Assembly (NCBI GenBank): GCA_002256025.1
Contig: NKIB01009642.1
Coordinates: 1-64,000, forward strand
Direction of reading: 5' to 3'
Length of the DNA stretch: 64,000 nucleotides
Source of the DNA: Asterionella formosa
Taxonomy: Eukaryota
Shown here: in pieces, positions 16,293-45,267 of the stretch
How the letters are laid out: each line of letters starts with the position of its first letter
How positions within the stretch are numbered: the first letter of the stretch is position 1
The notes under the pieces: generated by a model
What the model saw: the letters and a program-made list of their open reading frames with translations, nothing else
Database searches by the model: none
Told to the model about the DNA's origin: nothing
Program-made: the position numbers and the translations under genes

Positions 16293-18200
16293 TTACGCCC
16301 GTTGGCCCATAAGACTCCATGTTCTGGCTTCTGTAACCTTGACAGTCACCAGTTCACCGCTTAGTTCTTCTAAGTTTCCATCAAAAAATACTTGCCTTCC
16401 TTGTCGCGTTCGTCCTTGAACTTGCCGAGGATTTCGGGGATTCCCACCTTCGACCAAGACTTCCACAGTCCTTCCAACGTACCTCATAGATCGCTCCATG
16501 CCATGCTCGTTTGCTAGTTTTTGAACCATTTGAAGTCGAGCTGACTTGATGTCTTCTGGTACTTGGTCCTCCCACGTGGATGCTTCCGTGTTTGGTCGTG
16601 GAGAGTAGGCAAAGGTATTTAGATTGTCAAACTTGACCGCATTCATGAGGTCTAGCGTTCGTTGAAAGGCTTCGTCAGTTTCACCAGGAAACCCCACAAT
16701 GACATCTCCGCATATTGCAGCATCTGGGGATTTTTCTTTTATCTTGTCAATAATGCGCATGTAGGAATCAAAAGTATAGCCTCGTCTCATTCTTCGGAGG
16801 ACTTCGTCATCTCCAGCCTGAAAGGGAACATGGAAGCATTCACAAACCTTATCCAGATCGGCCACTGCGTCAATTACCCGATCTGAAAAGTATCTAGGAT
16901 GAGACGTGACATAACGAATTCTCAGTTTGGAAGGAAGGTTAGCATTGAGATAGTGAAGCAAATCGGCAAAGTTGCGTTTGGGGGTCATATCACGCCCATA
17001 TGCATCTATGTTCTGTCCCAATAAAGTGATTTCTTTGTATCCATCGCTAGCAAGATCCATGCACTCCTTCAGAAGGGCTTCCATTGTTCTAGATTGCTCC
17101 ATTCCTCTCACCGCAGGAACAACGCAATATGTACAATGCTCATTGCATCCATAAATAACATTTACCCAAGCCTTGAAAGGATGATCTCGGATTGGCTTTG
17201 AAAAATCTTCATGATGAATCATGGGTGCAGTGGCAACTACTTGGTGGCCCCATTCTACACTCTCGAGTACATTTTGCAAGTGAGGCACATATTGAGGTCC
17301 CAGCACCACATCAATCTCAGGAACGCGTCGAAGCAGTGCTTCTCCTTCTTGTTGCGCTACACAACCAGTGACAATGAGTGCCAGTTGTTGTCCGTTCCGT
17401 TTTTTGGCGGCAAAGGGTCCCAATGCATCATACAGTTTTTGTTCAGCATGATCACGAATAGTGCACGTATTAAAAATCACTACATCCGCGTCCTTGGGGT
17501 TTGTCGATGGCGTAAGGCCTAGTTTGTGCTCCAAAACACCAGCCAACCTCTCGCTGTCTGCCGCATTCATCTGACAGCCCGCCGTTTGAATCAAATAAGT
17601 TTTATTTCCATCTTTCAAAGTGGGAAATGTGGGCATGACGCCTTGTCCCTTGAGCTTGCCTCTCGTAATCAGTGCATTCTTCCCGGAGTGCGAGCCAACC
17701 CGTTCTCTTGAAGGGTCGTCCAGATTCACACGATGCAATACGGAAAGCTCTTCCACCTTGATGATATGAAATTGGTTGGAAATATTAGACTCTAGAATGT
17801 GTATATCGCCAGACTTTGGCGACATATCAAAGAGTGCTCTTTGTAAGTCCAAGGGGAGAATCAGAGTTGTTGCATCTTGCTCTGATACGTCAGTGTCCAG
17901 CCATCCCACCCTTCCGCCTTCTTCACGTGTATGAGGACAAGCGCTCAGCACGGATGCAATATTTCCAAAAGGGTCTTCCTCCTGCGATTCCAAATACTGT
18001 TGAACAACTAGTTGGGCCATGGCTCTTGTTTCTACTACAATATGGCGGACAAAGGCCGATTCGACCACTTTGGTGTAATCAACCTCTTCTTGGATACGAC
18101 GAGGAAACCACGTCGTTTCTTTTGGTAATGTAGTAGTCAAAGCCACGCACACTTGCAGGAGCGAAAGCGTGATGACCAGAAAGGACGTCGCTCTTGACAT
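16293..18200 (-). CDS. miaB: tRNA methylthiotransferase MiaB with N-terminal signal peptide and parvulin (PpiC-like) domain
   Basis: TAGCQMN..DSE, NTCTIR, GCVAQ, GCNEHCTYC radical SAM motif, IVGFPGET, YSPRPNT and a TRAM domain. N-terminal VRHIVVET..SACP..GGRVGW..FHIIKV. Start may be 18200, 18216 or 18219. Confidence 0.92.
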   Translation of the reverse strand: MSRATSFLVITLSLLQVCVALTTTLPKETTWFPRRIQEEVDYTKVVESAFVRHIVVETRAMAQLVVQQYLESQEEDPFGNIASVLSACPHTREEGGRVGWLDTDVSEQDATTLILPLDLQRALFDMSPKSGDIHILESNISNQFHIIKVEELSVLHRVNLDDPSRERVGSHSGKNALITRGKLKGQGVMPTFPTLKDGNKTYLIQTAGCQMNAADSERLAGVLEHKLGLTPSTNPKDADVVIFNTCTIRDHAEQKLYDALGPFAAKKRNGQQLALIVTGCVAQQEGEALLRRVPEIDVVLGPQYVPHLQNVLESVEWGHQVVATAPMIHHEDFSKPIRDHPFKAWVNVIYGCNEHCTYCVVPAVRGMEQSRTMEALLKECMDLASDGYKEITLLGQNIDAYGRDMTPKRNFADLLHYLNANLPSKLRIRYVTSHPRYFSDRVIDAVADLDKVCECFHVPFQAGDDEVLRRMRRGYTFDSYMRIIDKIKEKSPDAAICGDVIVGFPGETDEAFQRTLDLMNAVKFDNLNTFAYSPRPNTEASTWEDQVPEDIKSARLQMVQKLANEHGMERSMRYVGRTVEVLVEGGNPRNPRQVQGRTRQGRQVFFDGNLEELSGELVTVKVTEARTWSLMGQRA

Positions 18201-18783
18201 TGCGGCAGTATCCATCATGATGGCTGCCAACAAAATAAGTACCGCTACATCAAAATAAAATCAATACCAGGTACTAAAATTTTATCACAACCTTTCGAGC
18301 ACAAACACCGGATGTGGTAGCAAAAGAACTACCAGGTACCACAACCCCGTAGACTACCAATTGTACCTGGTACCGTACGATATACTGGTAGATAGAAATG
18401 CATCGGTATACACCAGGGTTACCAGATACCATTGCTTGCGCGCCCATGATCACAGGTCTACCATACATATTTCTTACCGATAGGCGGAAAATAGCCGCGC
18501 CATTATAACATCGGAGCTCCCTCCACTATGTACCAGGGGGGTAAATTTAACGGTATACCGGTATGTACTGCCGGCATACGTGATAGCGTGATAGCTATAT
18601 CAACACGGACTCTCAGCTATAAAAAGTACCAGGAGTACCAAGTATTAGCCAAAGCAACTTTGGCCACATGGCGGCGCCGATCACTTTTGTCACTGCACTG
18701 CGAGGATCTCCATTTTCATTAAGTTGACGTCATTGTTCACTCTTTCCCCTTCGCCGGTCCCTGGAATTTCTACTAATTTAACA

Positions 18784-21700
18784 ATGGCAGAATTAGATGC
18801 CAAAAGATTTCATGAACGCTTAGAGAAGTTTCATGCGAGTCTGTTGAAGCACAGGTAAGCAAAGCTCACGTTGACAGGTGTGACAGTGCCATGGACCGTA
18901 CCCCTCTCATGGAATCGGACTGGCGCAATCCCGTGTCCCGGCTAGTTTGCTCACGCCGCCTGTCTCACAGGACCTTGTGGTCGAATGCCACCGCGGTTTC
19001 GATTCATCGCGGTCCGGTGGTGGAAGACGAACCATACCTGAAATCTGTCATCTTCCACGAGTACCTATTTGGATACGAGCTTTCGGATACTGTCGTGCTT
19101 CTCACGCTGGACGGCGATCTCTACATTCTCACCACCAAAAAGAAGTGTGAATTCCTCGAGGGTGTCTCCAAGATTCCAAAGGGGTCATCCATAAAGGCCG
19201 TTCACCTTCTTCAAAAAAATAAGGCCGATGACTATGCAGACAACTTTGAAACTCTTCTTCAAGCTATCCATGCAACGGATGAGAAAAAAAGCTCTATCGG
19301 ATGTCTTACCAAGGAAGCAGAGATCAACTCATCTGGGATGGTTGCGGCATTTGAAGCCAAACTTAAGGAATCAGAGGACTTTGAAATAGTTGACACTGGG
19401 CCAGGTCTTTCCTTTGTCATGGCCATAAAGGACGAAGAGGAATTAGATCTCATTAAAAAGTCATCTGTTCTCAGCAACAAGGTTATGAAACATGGGTGCG
19501 TGGCGCGTCTGGAAGAGATTATTGACGGGGAAGAAAAGATTTCGCATGAAAAATTAAGCACATATATTGATGAGATCCTAGAGGACCCCTCCAAGATTAA
19601 ACTCAAGGTACCCAAAGACGACGTCTCTGCGTGCTACTTTCCTATCGTGCAATCTGGAGGGTATTATGATATTAAAGTATCTGCAGCTTCCAACTCAGAT
19701 GATCTCAAATATGATATTGTTATCGTTTCCCTGGGTGCGCGATACAGGAGTTACTGCTCCAACATTGCGCGGACATTCCTGGTGGATCCGCCCAAGAAAG
19801 TCAGCGAAACATACGAGCACCTCTTGGGTATGCAAGAAGCTTGCATTCTGGCCATGAAGCCAGGAAAACCTCTCAAAAATGTGTATAAAGCTGCGGTAAT
19901 CTACCTTCAGGAAAATGATGCTAGTCATCTCATTGCTCACCTGCCAAAGACTTTAGGGTTCTCGATCGGAATGGACTTTCGTGATGGGAATTTAACACTC
20001 AGCCCCAAGAATGGTGCTAGTTTCAAGGCGGGCATGACATTTTCGCTAGCATGTGGATTTCAAAATTTGATTCTCACTGATAAAGACAAATCTTCTACTC
20101 CAAAGCAGAGCGCGGTAAGTTTCGCGTCCTCGGATAGAAATTTTTGTTCATGGTACTGATTCTTTTGGTCCCTTGACTTCCTCTCACCATATTTGCATCA
20201 TTTTTTAGGTCAAATCTCTGGAAACTTATGCTCTTCTTTTGGCTGACATGGTTACCATTACAAAGGATGGTGGAGACGTTTTGACGAAGATGGCAAAGAA
20301 TGTGACAGATATTTCGTACACCATCAATGAAGATGAAGATAGCGGCGACGATGAGGAGGACGAGGATGACGAAACTCCTGGTGCACCAGAGGGGGACGCT
20401 GCTTTAGCTCGACGCATTGCAAAGGAATCAAGCGGCCAACGTGCTTCTGCTCGGCTAGCAAAGGATTCTGATGCCCAAGTGGAAGTTCAAGATAGTATCG
20501 TTGAGCGAGAACGCAAACAAATTGCACTTATGACTCGTCGCAATGAAGATCGTCTGCGCGAGCTTGCACGAGCAAATGCAAAGAATAGGGGAAAAGGTAA
20601 TGAATCAGACAAGCCAGAGGAACTAGAAGCTTACAGGAGAACCCGCGAATACCCAGATAATACTTTGCCGAATCAAGTCAAGGTTGATATGGCAAACCAA
20701 TGCGTTATTCTACCAATTTGTGGAAATCCTGTTCCGTTTCATATATCTACCATCAAGAACGTCGTTTTGCCGGATCCTGATAACGCTACATATCTTCGGA
20801 TCAACTTCTATACAGCTGGCATGGCGGTTGGTAAGGATGCGCCTACAAACACTGCCAAATTGGTTTCCAAGTATGCCCATTATGCTAGCTTCATCCGTGA
20901 GCTTACGTTCAGGTCGCTTGATAGCCACAACTTGACCCAAGCGTTCCGAATGATTTCCGAATTGCGCAAGCGTGAGAAGCAAAAAGAGCTACGTGCTCAA
21001 GAGGAGGCGGATCTTGTCGAACAGGAGAAGCTTATTCGTACCAAGAACGAACGTGTTCCTCGATTATCAGACTTGACCATGCGGCCTGTTTTTGCTGGTC
21101 GAAAGACCCAGGGTAACCTTGAAGCTCATTCGAATGGTCTGCGATTCATTTCGACTCGTTCCGAAGTCGTCGATATAATGTACAGCAATATCAAGTACGC
21201 TATTTTCCAGCCATGTGAGAACGAAATTATGGTTTTGATTCATTTCCATTTAAAGAATCCCATCATGATCGGAAAAAAGAGGCAAAAAGATGTCCAATTC
21301 TTCACGGAAGTGGTAGACGCAAGTCAGACTGTAGATGCCGGTAGGCGCAGTATGTACGATCCAGATGAAATGGACGACGAGCAACGCGAACGGCAACTTC
21401 GTAAACGATTGAACCAAGCTTTCAAAGATTTCTGTAAGAAGGTTGACGCAGTAGCTAAGAAGAACAGCTACGAGGTGGAATTCGATATTCCGTATAGGGA
21501 TCTTGGCTTCACTGGAAATCCCCACAAGGAAATGGTTTTCATCCAGCCAACTCTCAATTGTCTGATGAACTTGACAGAGACTCCTTTTTTTGTTGTTGAC
21601 CTGTCAGAAGTTGACCATGTTCATTTTGAGCGTGTCACCTACATGAGTAAGGCATTTGATTGTGTGCTGATCAACAAAGATTTTACCAAGCAACCCTGGA

Positions 21701-22301
21701 GAATCGACATGATCGACAATAATGACAAAGATGCCATCCAAGAATGGTTGACCGACATGGAAATAACATACACCCAAGGTCCTATGAACCTGAATTGGAA
21801 GCAGATAATGCAAACCATCGCACAGGATGATAGATTTTACATGAATACAGAAGAGGATGAAGTGACCGAAAAAGAAGCCGGCTGGGAATTTCTTCGTTTG
21901 TACGGACGCGAAGATGAAGAGGACGAGGATGAGGTAAGTGCCTATAGTAATGTTGAAATTATCAATCTAGGTTGTTTTTGTTGTTAATTTCCGCTTAAAT
22001 GTTTCAGGACGAAGATGATTCCGAGTTTGGCGAGGAACCTGAAGATGACGAAGAAGATTCAGAAGAGAGTGGAGACGAAGAAGAAGGCTTTGATTCCGAG
22101 GAGGATGACGAATCGGACTTTGACGCTGACGAAGAATTGGAAGAGGAAGGCCTCGACTGGGATGAAATGGAGAAACAGGCGATTGCCGAGGACAAGCGCC
22201 GTGGAAGAGAGGGCGAGCCACCGGTTGAAGAACCTCGAAAAAAACCAAAGCGAGGAAATCAACAACAGAGCCGGCAGCAACAGAACAAGCGAAGACGTTA
22301 A
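18784..22301 (+). CDS. SPT16: FACT complex subunit SPT16, 4 exons (18784-18854, 18971-20114, 20209-21933, 22008-22301)
   Basis: YLFGYE, PIVQSGG, GARYRSYCSNIART, VPFHISTIKN, LEAHSNGLRF, FERV and an acidic tail with GLDWDEME. Three GTAAG...AG introns restore the frame. Confidence 0.97.
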
Positions 22302-26875: not shown

Positions 26876-28176
26876 ATGATCCCTGGAATAGTCTTCTACA
26901 ATCCACTGACAACCGGGGCCGCGGTGCTCTCCATTCTCGTTCTAATTGCATATTCGTGGCCCCTTCCTGAATGGAATGACGAGGTCTCGGTGGCGTTCCT
27001 CGGCAACTCGATGCAGTACTTCAATGACTTCCCGAGGTTTATGGAAGTGCTGAGCGGTGGGAAGATTTCCCAGTCATCTTGCTTGCATGGAGATTCTACC
27101 ATCCCAAACATGCTCAGGAACGGTAAGTCAGTGCATTCTGCTGCGAGCCAATGAACTTGGTGTACCGACGCTCACTTTCGCTCCTAACAGGAAACGGCAT
27201 GTTCGGGAAATGGAACACCTCCGATGCTCTTATTAAGGGATTCCATGGAGAAGAAATCTTTGACTATGGTGCCTGTAGTGTTCCTCAGTTGTTGATGGGC
27301 AAGGATCCTGTCTTGACGGCGTATGACGGACGCGGTGATTACGAGGAGTTCCTCGATAGCCACAACGAGACATACTACGCCGATGGGACAAACCCGTGCT
27401 ACGAGGACCCTGTATACCTCGAATTCGCCATACAAAAGTATCATGAGGACAACCCGAATCTTCCAAAATGGGACTTTGTCGTCATCAATGACAATACCCG
27501 TTCCCCGGCGGAGTACGAAACACGACGACTGGCGCTGCATGTGTTGAATTCAACTTTTGTCGATTGGTTCAAGCACACAGGAGCTATTCCTGTATTTTGG
27601 TTTACCTACGGATATTGGACTGAACTGCGGAACACTTCCAATTTCAAAGATGTTCCAACCTTTACTTCCTTGACCTATGTTGGCTATCGTAAATACGCCG
27701 ACCTGGTTGGGGATCAGCTGCCAGAAGCACAAAAACCCCGAATTGCACCCATCGGATTTGCCTTTTTGACGATTTGGGAAGAGAACTATGACTTTTGGTT
27801 GACTCTGTTTCATTGGGATTATATCCACCCATCGCCAGCTGGAACCTACTTGGAAGGACTTATCATGCACTATACACTTTATGGTCATTTGCCCAAGAAG
27901 TCCGACGTTATCTTGGACGATATGTCAACTTTGTGGCGAACAGCGCGACTCATGGGACCAATCGCAGATCCTCCCAAGCCATTCCCAACGAGAGAGGAAG
28001 CTGTTTATTTGTTTCGTATTGCCCAACGAGTCACTCAAGAGGGTCATATCCCGTCAAGTTTCATAATGTATGAAAATGGTGAAGCTGCCGACGGTGATAG
28101 TATACTTACGGATGCCGATGAATCTAACCGGCCAATGAACAGGAAGAAAAAAATTATCTATAAACAAGGCGCCTGA
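26876..28176 (+). CDS. SGNH-like hydrolase with N-terminal membrane anchor, 2 exons (26876-27122, 27191-28176)
   Basis: FLGNS block I, WDFVVIND and DYIHPS block V. 68-nt intron 27123-27190. Confidence 0.75.
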
Positions 28177-35234: not shown

Positions 35235-38200
35235 TCAATTCGAAGCCTTCATTAACGTTCCACTGAGGACGCTAAGCGAGTGGATCTGCACACTAACAGC
35301 CTTCGCTCCCATTGCCTTGCTGAAACTGAGTAACCTCAAAATAAACAAATGTGTGCTTGACAAAGGCATTTCGCCTGTATCGTCACTTATTTCATCGATG
35401 AGTGAAACGGAGAGCTCGGCGTGCTCTCGAACCCATTCGCAAGTGTCGGCGTCTAGAAGTCCCATTACTTTTCTAATTTGTGCAGATCGTTTCACATTCA
35501 GAACATGATTGAGTCGACGGCAAACTATGCCAAGACCATCTTCAACAAATCGATTAAGGTCCATAACCTGTGCACTCCTTGTGACGAGAGCATCTACAAC
35601 TGTGTCCTTGCCAAGTTCGTACATGGCCAAGAAAAAGATGGTGCGTACATCGCGAACCTCAATTCCCCACAGCTCGGCGAGCACCTCGATTTCACCTAGA
35701 TGATAGTTGTCTATGATTGTCTCGCTTGTCAACCGACACGCCTGATTTATACTGGCTTTTTCTAGGAATTCAATTTGCTTTTCCACATCCCCCATTAAAC
35801 CGAATGAAGGATCAAAAATTGAAGTAGGTAGAAACGCTTCATAAAAACCATTGACACAAATCGCAAGATTTTCATGGTCTTCTGATACCATACAACCACA
35901 TATTATCACACGATGGAAGTCCAGAGCGTTGATGTTTGGTTTATGGAATTTTTCCACAAGACGTTTCAGGATAAAATCTTCTTTAACTGGTGGCCACGTA
36001 CCACTAGCGTCGCCATGTGGTGCTGACTGAAAGCCTGGTTCTGTACAATTATCTAACTGACCAGAGCGATAAAGGAGAGACAACACTTCAAGACTGACCT
36101 TTCCAAAACTTTGCAGCCAATCTGAGTCTAAGAACAGTGGGCTAATAAAATCCTCAAGGACGTCATGCACATCATGGAATCCAAAGAAAAGGGCCCGAAA
36201 GACTGGCCTAACACAAGTTTGCCATACTTCCAGTCGAACAGCAGCGGCCAGATTATTATACGGGCCTTCTTCTTCGACAAATGATAAAGCTTCAGTGCAA
36301 TCCTGCAAAAGCTCCAGATTAGACGGCTTGATTAACATGGTGTCATAAGAAAGTTGAGACAAAATAACTGAGTGGAAGACATGCAAACATCCATTTGTAT
36401 ATAATTACCTCATTTTTCCATTTCCCTGCCAACAAAAGGGCTCTGTGAGCAACTAGCAAAGAAGGATTGTTGTGGCTTCCAAGATATAACAAAAGTGCAC
36501 CTTGGACATTGTCATCAAAGTCGACTAGATATTCAGCACGTTCCTCTTCGCTTATGGCAGTCGCCAAGCAAGCCAGCTGAAGTAATTTCCATCGCAAAGG
36601 ATTGTCTCCAACAGAAGTGGATGGGTCAAATGCAATTCCACTTCCCTTACAAGTCTTCTCCAATGCAACAATGACAGCGTGCTTGTGACCGGAAATGAGC
36701 TCATCTCTCGCGACCCATTCGTAAACGCTAAAGGTGTCGTTGCTTTCTACATTCTCCACAGTGATTGGGAAAGTGCCCAAATTCATGCCATACAAGCGTA
36801 ATGATACAAAGAGACAAACTCGAATCTTTCTGAGCAAAGTTTCCCATGGGTGCACTACGAGAGCAACAACGTGAGTGGGAAAAAGTACGTGACATCTTGA
36901 AGTAGGGGTCCCGAATCTTTTATCACTCACCGCACGCGTCTCTACTGATTTTTCCGAACGTTTTCAGTTCCTTCTTCTTCGCTACAACGGAAACAGCTTC
37001 TCGACACAGAGACGAGAGAGTGAACGTTCTAACTAAGTCATCTGATGACGAACAAAACTTGTGTAGAGATCCAAGAACGACAAAATCATTCTCAGAATTG
37101 CTAGCAACATGAATGCTGATCTGGCGGTTCACGATTTCTTGAAGCCAACGTGCCATTGGCGAGTACAAGCCAAAGAATGCCTTGTTCGCTGCTTCTTTGG
37201 CAGGAATGCTCATAAACCATTCACCAAAGCACTAAAGTGGAATAAATAGATAAGATACGTATTCGTCTAGACAATGGGTTCACAAAGAATTGAGAGAACT
37301 TACTGTTTGCAAGTATTCAATATCATCTCTGAGGCCTAGGTGCTCGAGAATGGAATTCGTTACGTTGAAAGAAAAGATGTCACTTAACAGCGGTTTGAAT
37401 ATATGTACAAGGAGTTCCTTCCTTGTCCGGGAACTGTCGCTGAAGTAGATCGTATAACGCTTTGACTCCTTGTCTTTCACATTAATTTGGTCACGGGGAG
37501 AGCACGAACTTGCAAAGGTTGCGAATCGTGCAACTGCCCGTTTTTTAGTGATAACACAGTCGTCCAACGTACCCCCAGAAACGGTCTCAGCCGTCATCAG
37601 CCACGAAATAGCTTCGTCTGACCAAGGGGTTAGTGGTACATTGTTTACTTTTTCTTCCTCGACTTCGCCATCACCATTGAGTTCATATTCATACAAGACT
37701 TCGTAAGCTTTAACAAGCTAACGTTGAAGGAGGTGAGACATTCCAAAATTCATCGGTAGCTTGTCAATTTTGAGGTTTGAACTTACCTGCGAATGAAACT
37801 TGATACTGGACGACAGCGTTTGGATCTGAGGGTTATTGGTGTCAGCTCCAATGCCAATACTGGAAGAATCTAATAATTGCTTACAATGTGCCAATGCAAG
37901 CCTCTGGAATTCAGCCCCATTAACGCTCATTCTTTCAGCAAGAGATGAAGAAACTGAGAGAAGATCAAGTGCTATGCACAGATCCTTCAAATTGATAATG
38001 TTTGTCAAAGCTTCAAAAACATTTTGTTTTTGGCACGGAACATTGGTTTCAGCTAACAGCTGCTGCAATGTTTGCAACCTCATGGCCGCAGCTTGAATAG
38101 AGGTACTCGAGCCGATTCTTGTCTGATTTTTGTCCAATGGAATAATATCAGCATCTGAATTTGCATTTGCTTTCGGTCTGAGCAATTCCAATTGATTTAT

Positions 38201-39850: not shown

Positions 39851-40802
39851 TTCTCGTCTGATCAATGACAAGAACGTCAGAAGTCTTAACTTTCAAATGG
39901 GGTTGATTATGAGATGCAATATACGGACTATTAGAAAAGTTGACGCCGACAAGAAGGGGTCGAAGGAAGCTTTATTGAATGATTTCGTGTCATTTCTTGT
40001 CTTTCCAATGTTGTGCTCCTTGCTTGTGCGCATGATACCTTGGGAGTACCAGGGTATTTATTTCGGAATTGCTTGACCACAACAATCCTCATCAGCAAGT
40101 ACGAGGTGAGTCTACCATCTGTAACTGTACGCATAATGTACGATAAAAATGATCTGTGAAATGTACCAGTGTGGATGTGGTAAGATATGTTTGCAGGTGA
40201 CACGTATGATGTACGTGTAAAAATATGACAAGTTGACTATGAGGAGGATTTAAGGGGTACCTGGTACCAAGGACAGGTATTTTGGTACCAGTTACCATGT
40301 ATACCGGTACATACCTGACAACGGTATTTTGAAAGAGTCGGACATCGCACCGCCATTTGAAATACCGGTACCGGTACTGGTACTCTATGTAGCTATAGTA
40401 CTGGTACCGATGCAAACGAAAAACATTGATAGCTACATAAATATGAGAAAACATTTTAGTGCACCCCAGTATATACCAGTAGTGTAGAGTAAAAGTTTGT
40501 TTCAATTTTATCTTGTCTATTTGTTTCTCTTGCTATACTGTGGTGGACTGGCGGCCACTGGCATGACAGATTCTGTTCGTATTTCTTTGTCTTTGACCCA
40601 TGGCCATCTAGGTCTGGCACAAGGGTTACAGCTTTGTTAGAGGATTGATTCCTTTGAATACATTACATAATGTCCCTTCCATTAACATTGACAATCCGCC
40701 TTTTACTTAATTAACAAAAACTAAGATTATATCTTTTAGATCCAGCGTAATTAATATCATTTCGGATTTTGATGTTACATACAAAGAAGAATATCAACAC
40801 CA

Positions 40803-42992
40803 TCAGAAACGGCCCCGCTTCTCTTTCTTGGATTTTTCTGCTTGACCGGGCTTCCGCTTCGCTGTGTCTCTCGGGAAAAGCTCGAATAAGGATCTCATTC
40901 GTCGCTCAGCTCTATCGAATGCCGCAGCCTGAGATGATAATTGGTATTGACCCTTGGCGACAACAACCCACCCATAGATCAAGGTCGTTACGTCGTCCTT
41001 CCAGCCAAACGCGCTTGTGTGTTCCACTAGATGTTTCGATTCGTGCTCTTTGAATGATACCTTGTCACTGTATTTTATCACGCTATCGAATACCACCCAA
41101 CCAACTCTCTTTACGAGACCAGAATCAAGACGAACGAAATTGCCCAGCGAGCTGATACCTGCATCACCGCTGCCTGATTGCAATATTTCAATGCGTTTCC
41201 CAAGTAATGATGAAGGCAGATTGTATGCTCGTGTTTCGATCGACTTGCTTCCATCAAGAAGCAAGCTTGCCCAGGGCTCTTGCATTTCTAATCCAACGAG
41301 CGCTGTATTCCATCCATTCCAGTCTGCCTCCTTTGCGTGGGGATCTGAATTGGCATCGACAGGGTATTTCAATGTTTTCAGATTGGGTAGATCGCATTCT
41401 TTTGAAGTTTCAAATGCCTTACCGAATGCCCTCAGTTCAGATGCAATTGCACTTACATCGGCAATCATTCGGGAATGCCCTGCTTCGCTTGAACATGATG
41501 CAAAATAAAACGGAATGGGAAGTGGGCGACTTTCGTGATCAATCTTGGTAAACGCATGGTCTTTCTCACGTTTCCCCCACAGTTCTCTCATTTTTGCACG
41601 CTCGTCAAGTAACCCCGCCAAGGATTCAAACATGTCTGAGTTTTCACTCGCTCGAGACACCAGCTCTTCTAAAGTTACTAACGCCTTCTTTCGCTTGTCT
41701 CTTAATTTTCGTTCTTCACGAGAAACCGTATTTTGAGAAATTTCCATTTTGCATTTTCCTTCGGCACCCAATCGTAATAATTCAATAGTTTGTCTTGTCC
41801 TTTCTTCTAGCTGGGACCAATAACCTAGGATCTGTTGTATTGGTTCTCCCCAGGACTTCCACAACAGATTGTAGTGTTTCGTTCCTTGAACAAAGAATTG
41901 ACGGATCCATTCCGATTCTATGTCTGTCAAAAGGAGCTGTTCAGATCTCCACACTTTAATTCCCTTCTTGTGGAAGCTCGCAACTGTACTCTTGCATCGT
42001 TCCAAGACATAGGAAACATTGTGGGAGTCTCGGAGTAGTCGGTGTGTAGATGAATAGCGAACGCCTTCGACTTCACCTTCCGCCAGTACCACATGCTGGT
42101 GATGGTGATTAAAATCGTCAAGTAAGTAGTAAGTTGATCTGGATGGTAGAGAAACCGCGATCGGTGGAGTCTCAGTTACAATGGATGATACAATGTCAGT
42201 TCCCCGACGTGAGGCTTGCGGGCCTTCCGAATTGTGAGCTACACGAAGCCCGATCGACCATTTACCTTTCTCATTTCCCTCGTGAGATAATGTTTGATAC
42301 ACGGCAATGGAGGAGTAGTGTTCTAGACTAGAATCTGCATGCCAACTTACGGAGCACCGTCCTTCCCCAGTCGATGGTTCTGGCTTTAGGTCCGTTGAAC
42401 ACTCCATCCTATTTATCAAGCAAATATCAAACCCAGCCCTTCCTTTGACCGGCTGCCCATTACGTTTCCGTCTTGTCTGATCCAATTCCGTAAGATGCCT
42501 CGATAGCCTCTTCGTTAAATGCTGATTGAGTAATTGAATACTTTGCAAGGCCTTCTGCACTTTTGCATCTTTTTCATGCAACCCATCCCAAGGATGCCCG
42601 AACAGTCGAAGGCCCAAATACTTGTATGTTGTTCCTCTCTCTCCTAAGAGACACCGCGTTACGTACGTCGTAGCACATTTTGTTCCTAAACCGAACGGCT
42701 GCGTCACATCAGTGCGGAAAAAATGACTAGCCTGGAGCTGCTCGAGTGATGCTTCGATTTCGACATGAGCAACAACGGTTTCCTCAGGAGTATCAACAAC
42801 AAATCCTTCATACGAAGTTTTCAGTGCTATCTGGAATGATTTGTGGTATTTTCCCTCGTCTCGTAAGAAGCGTCCATCGGGTACTTGACAGTCACAAGGA
42901 AATGGCAAGGGCAAGGAGTCCGGATTTGTCAATGTTGAATGCCCCACAACGCGCGTTTGGCTCTGTTTGCCTTTGTTCTTTCCTTTTCCCAT
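40803..42992 (-). CDS. FTO: FTO-family 2OG/Fe(II) dioxygenase with C-terminal ASCH domain
   Basis: VTRCLLGERGTTYKYLGLRLF, CLINRM, VSWHADSSL (HxD), HHQH, RYSSTHR and FTO C-terminal EWIRQFFVQG. Then LEMQEPWASLLLDGSKSIETR (ASCH). Start MGKGK at 42992 is assumed. Confidence 0.9.
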   Translation of the reverse strand: MGKGKNKGKQSQTRVVGHSTLTNPDSLPLPFPCDCQVPDGRFLRDEGKYHKSFQIALKTSYEGFVVDTPEETVVAHVEIEASLEQLQASHFFRTDVTQPFGLGTKCATTYVTRCLLGERGTTYKYLGLRLFGHPWDGLHEKDAKVQKALQSIQLLNQHLTKRLSRHLTELDQTRRKRNGQPVKGRAGFDICLINRMECSTDLKPEPSTGEGRCSVSWHADSSLEHYSSIAVYQTLSHEGNEKGKWSIGLRVAHNSEGPQASRRGTDIVSSIVTETPPIAVSLPSRSTYYLLDDFNHHHQHVVLAEGEVEGVRYSSTHRLLRDSHNVSYVLERCKSTVASFHKKGIKVWRSEQLLLTDIESEWIRQFFVQGTKHYNLLWKSWGEPIQQILGYWSQLEERTRQTIELLRLGAEGKCKMEISQNTVSREERKLRDKRKKALVTLEELVSRASENSDMFESLAGLLDERAKMRELWGKREKDHAFTKIDHESRPLPIPFYFASCSSEAGHSRMIADVSAIASELRAFGKAFETSKECDLPNLKTLKYPVDANSDPHAKEADWNGWNTALVGLEMQEPWASLLLDGSKSIETRAYNLPSSLLGKRIEILQSGSGDAGISSLGNFVRLDSGLVKRVGWVVFDSVIKYSDKVSFKEHESKHLVEHTSAFGWKDDVTTLIYGWVVVAKGQYQLSSQAAAFDRAERRMRSLFELFPRDTAKRKPGQAEKSKKEKRGRF

Positions 42993-45267
42993 CAATCTAC
43001 TGGTACAGAATTCTAAGGGGGGGGGGGAGCAAGTGGCACGTGAACTGGAAATCAGCTCGTTAGATACAAGAAAGTACCGGTAAAACAATTCGACCCGAAG
43101 AACAAAATTGGTGGTGAATTCTTGTTGTGAGCCCATCATTCGGATGGCTGCTTTGGTGATGACCACATGCAAAAATGCGAACACATGATGTACCGGTACC
43201 GGTATGTCTGGCTGAAACAAAATAAATACCGGCATATGTACATGCCGGTATGTCCGTACGTTCGCATGTGCATCTTTGATGAATGGCCAGACTAAAAAAG
43301 GTCAACAAAAGTCTATCATACATGTGGTGTTTCTTCACATTTTGGGGGATAAACATACTACCGGTATGACATATTGATGCATCATGTTGGGGATTTATTG
43401 TGAGCAAATGGAACATGGGTTATTTTCCGTCTATGCATGATAGCCTGCTGATTTTTCAAACCCGCATACATAGTCACACAAAACGATTGATGCGACAAAG
43501 TATTCAGAGGCGGTAATACCAGGTATAATTCCAACAAAAGTATACAAAAAGAAGTTGTTCACAATGATCCGCCCACTAGTAGCTAGCTACTAGGAGTAGG
43601 AGGCATTCGGCTGTCCTTTCACCCAAAAAATGTGTTTGAACACACTTCTAATTCATTCACCACGAATGGTGGCTACCAGCTGGCACGCGATGCGTTCTTA
43701 TTGGCAATGGGATGAAATACTCATGCCCACACTGCAAACAATCTGACGACACACGCCTTCTCCTCATTTGCCACTCTCCCAAAATCATGTGGCAATGCTA
43801 GAAATTCAAGTATGACATGATACTTTGCCTCCAAACTCAACTAGATTAAAGTGGGCAAGCTAGTGAGTCCAGTTTTTATGGAATACTACAAGCATCTATT
43901 TTCCGAAGATACCACTTGTTCATTTGATCCTGCTTTTACACCTCGTACAGCCCAATCAACGAAAGATTTTTTTACTAGCAATTATCCATCAAGATTTTAT
44001 CGGACACAGCCACACTAACAAGAATGCATGACTAGTATATAAGCTCATCTCCTTGGTTACCCACAACGAAGAGGGTAGAAGAAGACCCTAGAGACTGGCC
44101 GTCAAATGAGGCTACTACACAAATTTGGATTTTTTCTAAAAATACCCGCATAGAACGGAATGTGATTCTTCACAAAGAATCTAGTAGAAATATTGCCAAC
44201 TCTGATCTGAAGCAGAAAATTCGAAAATTATCACACCAACCAGGGACTGATTTGCACTCGCTGTGCACACCTTTTCCAAATACAAGTGTTTGTACCACTC
44301 CTCTTGGCACGAGCAAAAAAGAGGACTGTTTTGGAAAAAGTGGAGTTCCTCTATGCAACCTCTGCTACACTCGCTAAACACCAGGCAGGGGAACTTCCAA
44401 TCCACAAGTTTTTCGTGTCCGGATCTATGCAACCACAACAACCCAGACCACCTTGAGTGTGGCCAGTACTTTCTCCAAAAGTACAAACAACCTCAAACCT
44501 GGTCAATAAGGATGCTCATGGCGCTTAAACATTGTCAACCCATTTTTATTGACTGGTGGCCAACCATTCTTGATTGCAACAAGCTGTGCAAAAAGGAAGA
44601 GTGTCACCTGGTAGTGAGACAATCATCCCAAGATCAAGAATTTTGTTTCTCCCGCCATTCATTCAAGATTGGGCATCCAAACACACCTCCTCTGCTGCAT
44701 TGAAATGATTGTCACCATGTCTGTTGGGTTGATCCTTGCAGAAACAGCCACCAAGGGGAGCCATGCAAAATATTCTATTCCAGTACTAGTATAGTTTTTA
44801 AGACCCCATAAAAATGATGTTAAATATAAATATATCTTTGGATCTTCGCCTGCAGTTACTATTCTACATGATCATTACAATCACTATGCATTCAATTTGT
44901 TAACATGGCTGTCACGCGCAAAGGAAATAACGATTTCAACATTCCTAATTCTATCGTGTATTACGCACGACTGAAAAAGAATGAGAATGAATATGTCATG
45001 TCTTTACGTTATGTATGATAGCTATGGCTGATCGTCACATGATTGTATTTCTCGCTGCTGACGCATGTGCGTGGTTTTCTTCTCGCCAACGCACAACAAA
45101 ACATATGATGATGGGGGATAAAGATCGTTGCTCCGCCAGACTGGTGGAAATGACTACCGGTATGCAGGGTCAAATTAATCTCTCAACGACAGATGTGAAG
45201 ACACAATACTCGTCAATGACAACAAAACAACAGAATAGCATTAGATCACCCAGGACGATAGAATATC

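Follow-up and report, generated by a model that had tools for sequence, protein, structure and literature searches.

Proteins in which an FTO demethylase is joined to an ASCH domain are already known. Algal FTO proteins with a C-terminal ASCH domain were described in 2015 by Tung et al. (PMC4354923), in section 3.6 as well as in the legend to Supplementary Fig. 8A, and a 2026 preprint on EOLA1 (10.64898/2026.08.01.741249) mentions, in its passage on fusion partners, an AlkB-related 2-oxoglutarate (2OG)/Fe dioxygenase among the proteins to which eukaryotic TRIP4-like ASCH domains are fused. The gene considered here has the architecture described by Tung et al. and is a member of that group. It is located on the minus strand of a 64,000-nucleotide stretch of DNA from the diatom Asterionella formosa (contig NKIB01009642.1; hereafter the window), where its coding sequence occupies positions 40803..42992. 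An earlier note on this DNA, made by a model from the letters alone, had regarded the architecture as uncharacterised as far as it knew, and this claim of novelty is refuted by the two sources named above. What appears to be new, judging from alignment with characterised relatives, is the assignment of the diatom ASCH domain to the GKER/TRIP4-like type, its retention of all the residues that the bacterial protein TthASCH needs for hydrolysis, and an invariant glutamate at a position where serine or threonine would be expected. The retained residues cause us to consider the protein as a candidate dual eraser of nucleic acid modifications.

The algal fusion has already been of use. Fused domains tend to interact when they occur as separate proteins, and Tung et al. 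2015 treated the algal protein as a Rosetta-stone lead, a clue that led them to the mammalian FTO-TRIP4 interaction, for which the relevant passages of their paper give evidence from co-immunoprecipitation and yeast two-hybrid assays. The passages on the algal protein itself contain neither biochemistry nor residue-level analysis, and they concern marine algae, whereas the diatom copy examined here looks like a freshwater one, with the RNA sequencing runs that match the gene labelled as lake-water and freshwater metagenomes. Sanchez-Pulido and Andrade-Navarro 2007 (PMC2241624) had earlier found a diatom FTO, and the portion of their paper that deals with it reports nothing homologous to its C-terminus. 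Iyer et al. 2016 (PMC4738411), who cite the FTO-TRIP4 interaction, describe analogous AlkB-SAD/SRA fusions in fungi. As presented in the passages on them, these fusions combine an AlkB dioxygenase with a PUA-like pocket and so follow the same ‘eraser plus pocket’ logic, but they involve another dioxygenase clade, another PUA-like family and another lineage. A paper on FTO in diatoms (PMC12024952) concerns, in the part that bears on this subject, the overexpression of human FTO.

Human FTO (Protein Data Bank, PDB, entries 3lfm and 6aej, with chains of 463-495 residues) ends after its helical domain, lacks an ASCH domain, and binds TRIP4 in trans. The ASCH domain of TRIP4/ASC-1 (8alz, 8yew, 9kyk) is combined with PWI and zinc modules instead of a dioxygenase. 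According to the motif section of a second preprint (10.64898/2026.02.27.708502), ASCH proteins can be grouped into a ‘GKER’ type, including TRIP4, EOLA1, ZmASCH and TthASCH, and a ‘GK[T/S]R’ type exemplified by YqfB. TthASCH (TTHA0113; 2dp9/1wk2) is a stand-alone bacterial protein of 121 amino acids whose N4-acetylcytidine (ac4C) amidohydrolase activity was measured in that preprint; in the mutational data given there, ac4C hydrolysis is lost if Y14, K23, E26, R28 or Y81 is changed. According to the same data, EOLA1 and TRIP4_ASCH cannot lower tRNA ac4C in Escherichia coli without their Lys and Glu. E. coli YqfB (9kyf, 9kyh) is also an ac4C amidohydrolase.

The fused gene and its modules

There is a single open reading frame (ORF) on the minus strand, which runs from an ATG at 42992 to a stop codon at 40803-40805 and encodes a product of 729 amino acids, as given by the ORF listing and translation. 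The coding sequence is intron-less, and colinear RNA contigs accompany it. The earlier description of one uninterrupted frame encoding an FTO catalytic domain, an FTO C-terminal domain, a linker and an ASCH domain is borne out by the 729 codons without a stop, by Pfam, by profile comparison and by the predicted fold. All features given below are on the minus strand, with coordinates referring to the window.

Residues 52-506 constitute, by comparison with known family members, a complete and intact FTO-type Fe(II)/2OG dioxygenase. The catalytic domain (FTO_NTD, PF12933; residues 52-319, positions 42036..42839) matches its profile at E 2.1e-64 with 217.9 bits, and the FTO-specific helical C-terminal domain (FTO_CTD, PF12934; residues 324-506, positions 41475..42023) does so at E 3e-18 with 66.7 bits, the cut-off being 27 bits in each case. 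Human FTO structures match the query at E 4.3e-34 over residues 105-407. An HxD motif (H218-A-D220; 42333..42341) is aligned to SWHhDenL of human FTO, and H300, the third metal ligand, together with the RxxxxxR motif formed by R312 and R318 (42039..42095), is aligned to HQHcVL and pRfSSTHR. We take the HxD...H residues to be Fe(II) ligands and the RxxxxxR residues to be the 2OG-binding pair, as in the AlkB/FTO family. The two motifs had been noted earlier as intact, and none of the 77 aligned homologues lacks H218, D220, H300, R312 or R318. Thus, the diatom protein shares with human FTO both the FTO_NTD and FTO_CTD domains and identical metal- and 2OG-binding residues.

The C-terminal portion of the protein carries an ASCH domain at residues 565-705 (40878..41300). 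When a single sequence is compared with the Pfam model PF04266, the match extends over residues 568-666 at E 0.0094 and 17.1 bits, which is under the 21.2-bit cut-off. Therefore, in the Pfam-type search that the earlier note had proposed, both FTO domains were recovered above threshold and the ASCH domain fell below it. This threshold is a detection limit and not a defining trait, and the family sits at the margin of what the Pfam model covers. With residues 550-705 as query, 463 relatives are found at E <= 0.001, and among 40 relatives chosen for a Pfam comparison there are 6 above the ASCH threshold, 7 below it and 27 without an ASCH match at E <= 0.01. One database homologue (P0033) already bears a precomputed PF04266 label.

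An alignment of 44 domain sequences (A2) was used both for a profile search and for an AlphaFold2 model. All 15 matches of the profile to PDB sequences are ASCH proteins, including TRIP4/ASC-1 as the best (4.3e-5), TTHA0113 (1.4e-4), ZmASCH and EOLA1/CXorf40. The model has a predicted local distance difference test score of 92.3 and a predicted template modelling score of 0.86, and all 17 of its Foldseek matches at E <= 0.001 are ASCH structures. With VIA-align, TthASCH resembles the model most closely (Z 10.8, root mean square deviation 3.1 over 109 aligned residues, 24% identity), and next come ZmASCH (Z 10.2), EOLA1 (Z 9.8/9.4), TRIP4 (Z 8.3) and YqfB (Z 7.7, with a Foldseek E value of 0.17). 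These five proteins account for 17 of the top 18 rows (Z 10.8-7.1), and other PUA-like folds such as Lon-N, EVE/THYN1 and YTH come next at Z about 7 to 4.5. The ASCH assignment is firm because the A2 profile, Foldseek and VIA-align agree, where the single-sequence Pfam match would be insufficient. The predicted structure thus confirms that the C-terminus is an ASCH beta-barrel domain.

The signature motif of the domain, MQEPWASLLLDGSKSIETR, corresponds to residues 570-588 (41229-41285) and reads as the earlier note had written it. The extent proposed there, about 41300-40930, agrees with that of the modelled domain, 41300-40878. The ESM Atlas clusters that best resemble the ASCH part score 0.90-0.92; one is named ‘ASCH domain-containing protein’, and the majority are either viral or without a name. 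They serve as no more than a lead and do not strengthen the assignment.

Of 11 listed sequencing runs, 9 contain part of the stretch and 8 of these are recorded as RNA. Four runs from three studies were compared with the window, and the RNA evidence takes the form of contigs, so that true transcript ends and the RNA strand are not proven by it. A 2583-nucleotide contig from a metatranscriptome (run X2) is colinear with positions 40682-43239, which gives the approximate extent of the mRNA as 40682..43239 on the minus strand, and a 2298-nucleotide contig from a poly(A) library (run X6) lies on 40682-42979. Neither contig has reported joints, and the depth in the flanking bins is zero for both. 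The junction between FTO_CTD and the ASCH domain is bridged by these two contigs, which come from two studies, and neither of them is interrupted before 41300, which would have spoken against a fused transcript. Contigs from run X1 are broken near 41538 and 42986, and we treat these breaks as a feature of the assembly graph and not as evidence about the transcript. Since RNA contigs bridge the junction and the frame is open, the fusion is not an annotation artefact.

Conservation and pocket residues of the ASCH domain

The list of homologues comprises 120 FTO proteins, all between 400 and 1276 amino acids in length. The ASCH domain is present in 89 of them, and in 86 of the 99 that have a complete FTO body. 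The close homologues with species names all come from pennate diatoms (Cylindrotheca, Nitzschia, Pseudo-nitzschia and Fragilaria). Mean identity to the query among 76 homologues is 0.59 for FTO_NTD, 0.51 for FTO_CTD, 0.48 for ASCH, 0.29 for the linker and 0.22 for the C-terminal tail. The ASCH value is close to that of FTO_CTD, and the ASCH module is thus constrained similarly to the FTO body. The linker (residues 507-564, about 58 residues; 41301..41474) is flexible and poorly conserved apart from S507, P508, L513 and A526, which are nearly invariant. The tail (residues 706-729; 40806..40877) is basic, with an isoelectric point (pI) of 11.1 and a consensus from 77 homologues that ends in KKxKKxRx, and it might serve in nuclear localisation or nucleic acid binding.

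In a FastTree phylogeny of 88 FTO bodies, 9 of the 13 proteins that lack the ASCH domain fall in one clade with a local support of 99 (P0075, P0090, P0095, P0099, P0102, P0111, P0112, P0119 and P0120), and the others are scattered singletons. An ASCH-bearing protein (P0056) is nested inside this clade. One of the singletons, P0068, hardly differs from the ASCH-bearing P0008, which marks it as a truncated gene model. In P0073, P0090 and P0102 the conserved linker directly joins a basic tail that resembles the tail of the fused form. The ASCH-less subclade thus looks like a case of clean secondary domain loss, as far as can be judged from these sequences.

The octapeptide G581-S-K583-S-I-E586-T-R588 (41229..41252) is aligned to K23, E26 and R28 of TthASCH. 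Within it, G581 is found in 75 of 77 homologues, K583 and R588 in all 77, and E586 in 76 with one D, which gives the pattern GxKxxExR. By the residue at the third octapeptide position, E586, the domain classifies as the GKER/TRIP4-like type. This Glu stands where Thr or Ser would be expected in the YqfB type (GK[T/S]R), and that assignment is ruled out. YqfB, the ASCH enzyme cited earlier, has the same fold and shares the octapeptide Lys and Arg, but has Thr where the diatom domain has Glu (GKTR vs GKER). TRIP4 shares with the diatom domain both GxKxxExR and the QPWAxLL strand.

All five positions required by TthASCH have counterparts in the diatom protein, as mapped through the A2 profile alignment and counted in the alignment of 77 homologues. 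Y14 corresponds to W574 (74/77), K23 to K583 (77/77), E26 to E586 (76/77 plus one D), R28 to R588 (77/77) and Y81 to W664 (76/77). In addition, the HL and YxW region of TthASCH has an equivalent, and H654 and W675 are invariant among the homologues and common to TthASCH. Unlike TthASCH, with its measured activity, the diatom domain is known from sequence and a model.

One pocket position departs from the pattern of the clade. The position of S7 in EOLA1 is said, in the section of 10.64898/2026.08.01.741249 that treats the pocket, to carry Ser or Thr universally in the TRIP4-like clade. In the diatom domain this position, 14 residues upstream of the octapeptide Lys, is E569, and the Glu is found in 77 of 77 homologues, with Q571 alongside it also invariant. 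The correspondence was obtained by ungapped register against the TRIP4 stretch, where the Ser of ‘LSVHQ’ takes the place of the invariant Glu, and from the description in the preprint. By the same ungapped count TthASCH has Ile here, which makes the ‘universal’ Ser/Thr rule itself doubtful.

Proposed function and its alternatives

Our preferred reading, to which we assign a probability of roughly 0.42, is that the protein is a two-module nucleic acid de-modification enzyme in which the ASCH pocket is an active amidohydrolase, making the whole a dual eraser. The FTO module would act oxidatively on single-stranded RNA or DNA, its presumed substrate, and strip N-methyl groups from the bases, while the ASCH pocket would accept a modified base that is flipped out of the same RNA. 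There it would probably hydrolyse an N-acyl base, for example ac4C, and not simply bind it, and the fused protein would be a cis version of the mammalian FTO-TRIP4 partnership. We infer both activities, the substrate and the coupling between the modules. The ASCH domain is probably hydrolytic because it retains all the residues that TthASCH needs for amidohydrolysis. The proposal of the earlier note, namely that recognition of a modified base, or a further activity that removes a modification, could be coupled to oxidative demethylation, seems reasonable on sequence grounds, and the coupling idea is strengthened by the full conservation of the pocket residues.

Several observations weigh against a dual eraser. 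According to the conservation data in 10.64898/2026.08.01.741249, the Glu is invariant throughout the TRIP4-like clade. The TRIP4 ASCH domain is also known, from PDB titles, as a DNA-binding domain, and an earlier study, as cited in 10.64898/2026.02.27.708502, saw no hydrolysis of the ac4C nucleoside by ZmASCH, TRIP4_ASCH or EOLA1. The substrate or chemistry of the diatom domain may differ, given E569 in place of the Ser/Thr of the clade, and the domain is neutral (pI 7.04) rather than strongly basic. FTO function appears not to depend strictly on the ASCH domain, to judge from the subclade that has apparently lost it. Finally, a full-text literature search found no activity assay of any algal FTO-ASCH protein.

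We favour a dual eraser over a catalytically silent reader or targeting module, although sequence alone cannot separate them because the clade conserves K/E/R throughout. A silent ASCH domain might bring FTO to its substrates or raise its affinity, in the manner of YTH, EVE and SRA domains, and this is a tentative possibility that we take seriously without expecting it to be correct. The domain belongs to the PUA-like fold group, with EVE/THYN1 and YTH structures matching the model at Z about 5, and the TRIP4 ASCH domain has been crystallised with double-stranded DNA (8yfi, 8yfj, 9kyl). Moreover, eukaryotic ASCH domains were proposed as modified-base discriminators in the relevant passage of Iyer et al. 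2016 (PMC4738411), and both the negative nucleoside result cited above for GKER-type proteins and the presence of E569 would fit such a role. Conversely, the five TthASCH hydrolysis residues are kept in 74 to 77 of 77 homologues, and two 2026 preprints report, in the passages on activity, that TthASCH, EOLA1 and TRIP4_ASCH are deacetylases. The lack of basic character in the domain also speaks against this reading. If instead the ASCH domain makes no contact with a base and docks FTO to helicase or transcription partners, as TRIP4 does in the ASC-1 complex, one would have an explanation for the top profile match, which is TRIP4 in the cryogenic electron microscopy entry 8alz of ASCC3-ASC1, and for the link between FTO-TRIP4 and NF-kB co-activation made in passages of Tung et al. 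(PMC4354923). We give such a co-activator role only a slim chance, as the invariant residues are at the octapeptide and aromatic pocket positions and not on a known interface, and as both stand-alone homologues of 140-180 amino acids and fusions to unrelated enzymes exist.

A different chemistry for the pocket can also be envisaged. Oxidation products of FTO persist. Fu and colleagues are said to have found in 2013 that the enzyme forms N6-hydroxymethyl- and N6-formyl-adenosine. The ASCH domain might be an adenine deformylase/deacylase that hydrolyses FTO's own over-oxidation product, N6-formyl- or N6-hydroxymethyl-derived adenine, in which case the modules would carry out successive steps of demethylation and the polypeptide would perform a complete, channelled conversion of N6-methyladenosine (m6A) to A. 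This is a long shot, but it has some appeal: ASCH enzymes, in the accounts cited above, hydrolyse N-acyl groups on exocyclic base amines, and in N6-formyl-adenine the exocyclic amine carries an N-acyl group, which makes it a chemical analogue of ac4C. Furthermore, the fusion is an obligate trait for most family members, the pocket has subfamily-specific features in the invariant E569 and Q571, and a metagenomic protein described below joins this ASCH subfamily to an unrelated 2OG oxygenase. However, a literature search found no paper that combines ‘N6-formyladenosine’ with ‘amidohydrolase’, the known ASCH substrates are cytosine derivatives, and no ASCH domain is fused to vertebrate FTO or to the FTO of one diatom subclade. 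Were the adenine-deacylase idea correct, the mammalian FTO-TRIP4 pairing would be a split form of the same two-step machine, and E569 and Q571 would have adapted a pocket of the cytosine type to a ligand of the adenine type. Least probable of all, and in our view almost certainly wrong, is the notion that no fused protein is made, because adjacent genes for FTO and a small ASCH protein share a frame by chance or were misassembled. Many ASCH-only proteins of 140-180 amino acids are indeed present in databases, and the RNA evidence comes from contigs and not from reads. Nevertheless, there is no stop codon across 729 codons, the junction is spanned by colinear RNA contigs from two studies, one of them poly(A), there are conserved positions within the linker, and 86 of the 99 homologues with a full FTO body, among them named species and MMETSP transcripts, show the same architecture. 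A gene-fusion artefact is rejected for these reasons.

The value of the diatom protein lies in its being a well-defined, testable enzyme and not in a new architecture. It has become more topical now that ASCH proteins of the same GKER type are reported in 2026 preprints as ac4C deacetylases. If it is a dual eraser, it could be a natural ‘double eraser’ in which a methyl and an acyl mark are removed by one protein; otherwise it could combine a demethylase with its own pocket for modified bases. Its characterisation would show whether the mammalian FTO-TRIP4 contact has enzymatic meaning and would provide a first handle on RNA de-modification in diatoms.

Start codon, other ASCH contexts and neighbouring genes

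The frame of the FTO-ASCH gene remains open 5′ of the ATG at 42992, up to another ATG at 43235. A coding role for this extension is unlikely, and the start at 42992 is favoured by three observations. M1 is kept in at least 90% of 77 homologues in the alignment. A run of 11 C residues at about 43017-43027 (minus strand, in the presumed 5′ leader) is 2 nucleotides shorter in the X1 and X2 RNA contigs, so that the upstream extension would go out of frame there. The poly(A) contig of run X6 terminates at 42979. The difference in the C run reflects either polymorphism in homopolymer length or a mistake in the assembly.

A variant of the gene was found in another freshwater metatranscriptome (run X7, from a different study), where it matches positions 40514-43026 with 95-99% likeness and about 49 listed substitutions across the ORF. 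This variant presumably derives from a related strain or species.

Members of this ASCH subfamily are also found in other contexts. A metagenomic protein of 519 amino acids (P0206), known from a single contig of 1727 nucleotides, has the domain at residues 4-140, N-terminal to DIOX_N and 2OG-FeII_Oxy domains, and is apparently a second, independent ASCH-dioxygenase fusion. Other relatives (P0224/P0252 with 733 amino acids, P0146 with 672, P0167 with 531, P0185 with 1082 and P0232 with 822) are fusions to protein kinase, GT4 glycosyltransferase or RmlD/epimerase-like domains, or are long proteins without another Pfam match. The metagenomic fusions to kinase, GT4 and RmlD domains may be gene-model errors. 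There are also dozens of stand-alone ASCH homologues of 140-180 amino acids that include an N-terminal DWxGW helix region (for example P0141, P0156, P0161, P0184 and P0197), and some of these may be ORF fragments of fused genes. P0197, which by its accession is from the transcriptome of Yihiella yeosuensis, presumably a dinoflagellate, is the sole organism-labelled protein among 10 relatives checked.

The neighbours of the gene in the window are ordinary eukaryotic nuclear genes, such as those for RPB2, SPT16, lipoyl synthase, a MiaB-like radical-SAM protein, PsbQ, Rab3GAP2, a rhomboid protein and INTS7. An operon-style reading of this context was rejected as irrelevant for that reason, and the FTO-ASCH gene is an ordinary nuclear diatom gene that is transcribed as one intron-less mRNA. 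Two ORFs, at 27151-28176 (plus strand, 341 amino acids) and 35235-36338 (minus strand, 367 amino acids), have no Pfam match at E <= 1e-4. The MiaB/CDK5RAP1-like radical-SAM methylthiotransferase (UPF0004, Radical_SAM and TRAM domains) is encoded at 16293-18218 on the minus strand, about 23 kb from the FTO-ASCH gene, and in a eukaryotic genome there is no reason to assume a functional link between the two. SPT16, a subunit of FACT, is represented by two plus-strand ORFs about 88 bases apart, one at 18891-20159 with the N-terminal lobe and an M24-like domain and the other at 20248-21987 with the middle and PH domains. This arrangement would fit a single gene interrupted by a short intron.

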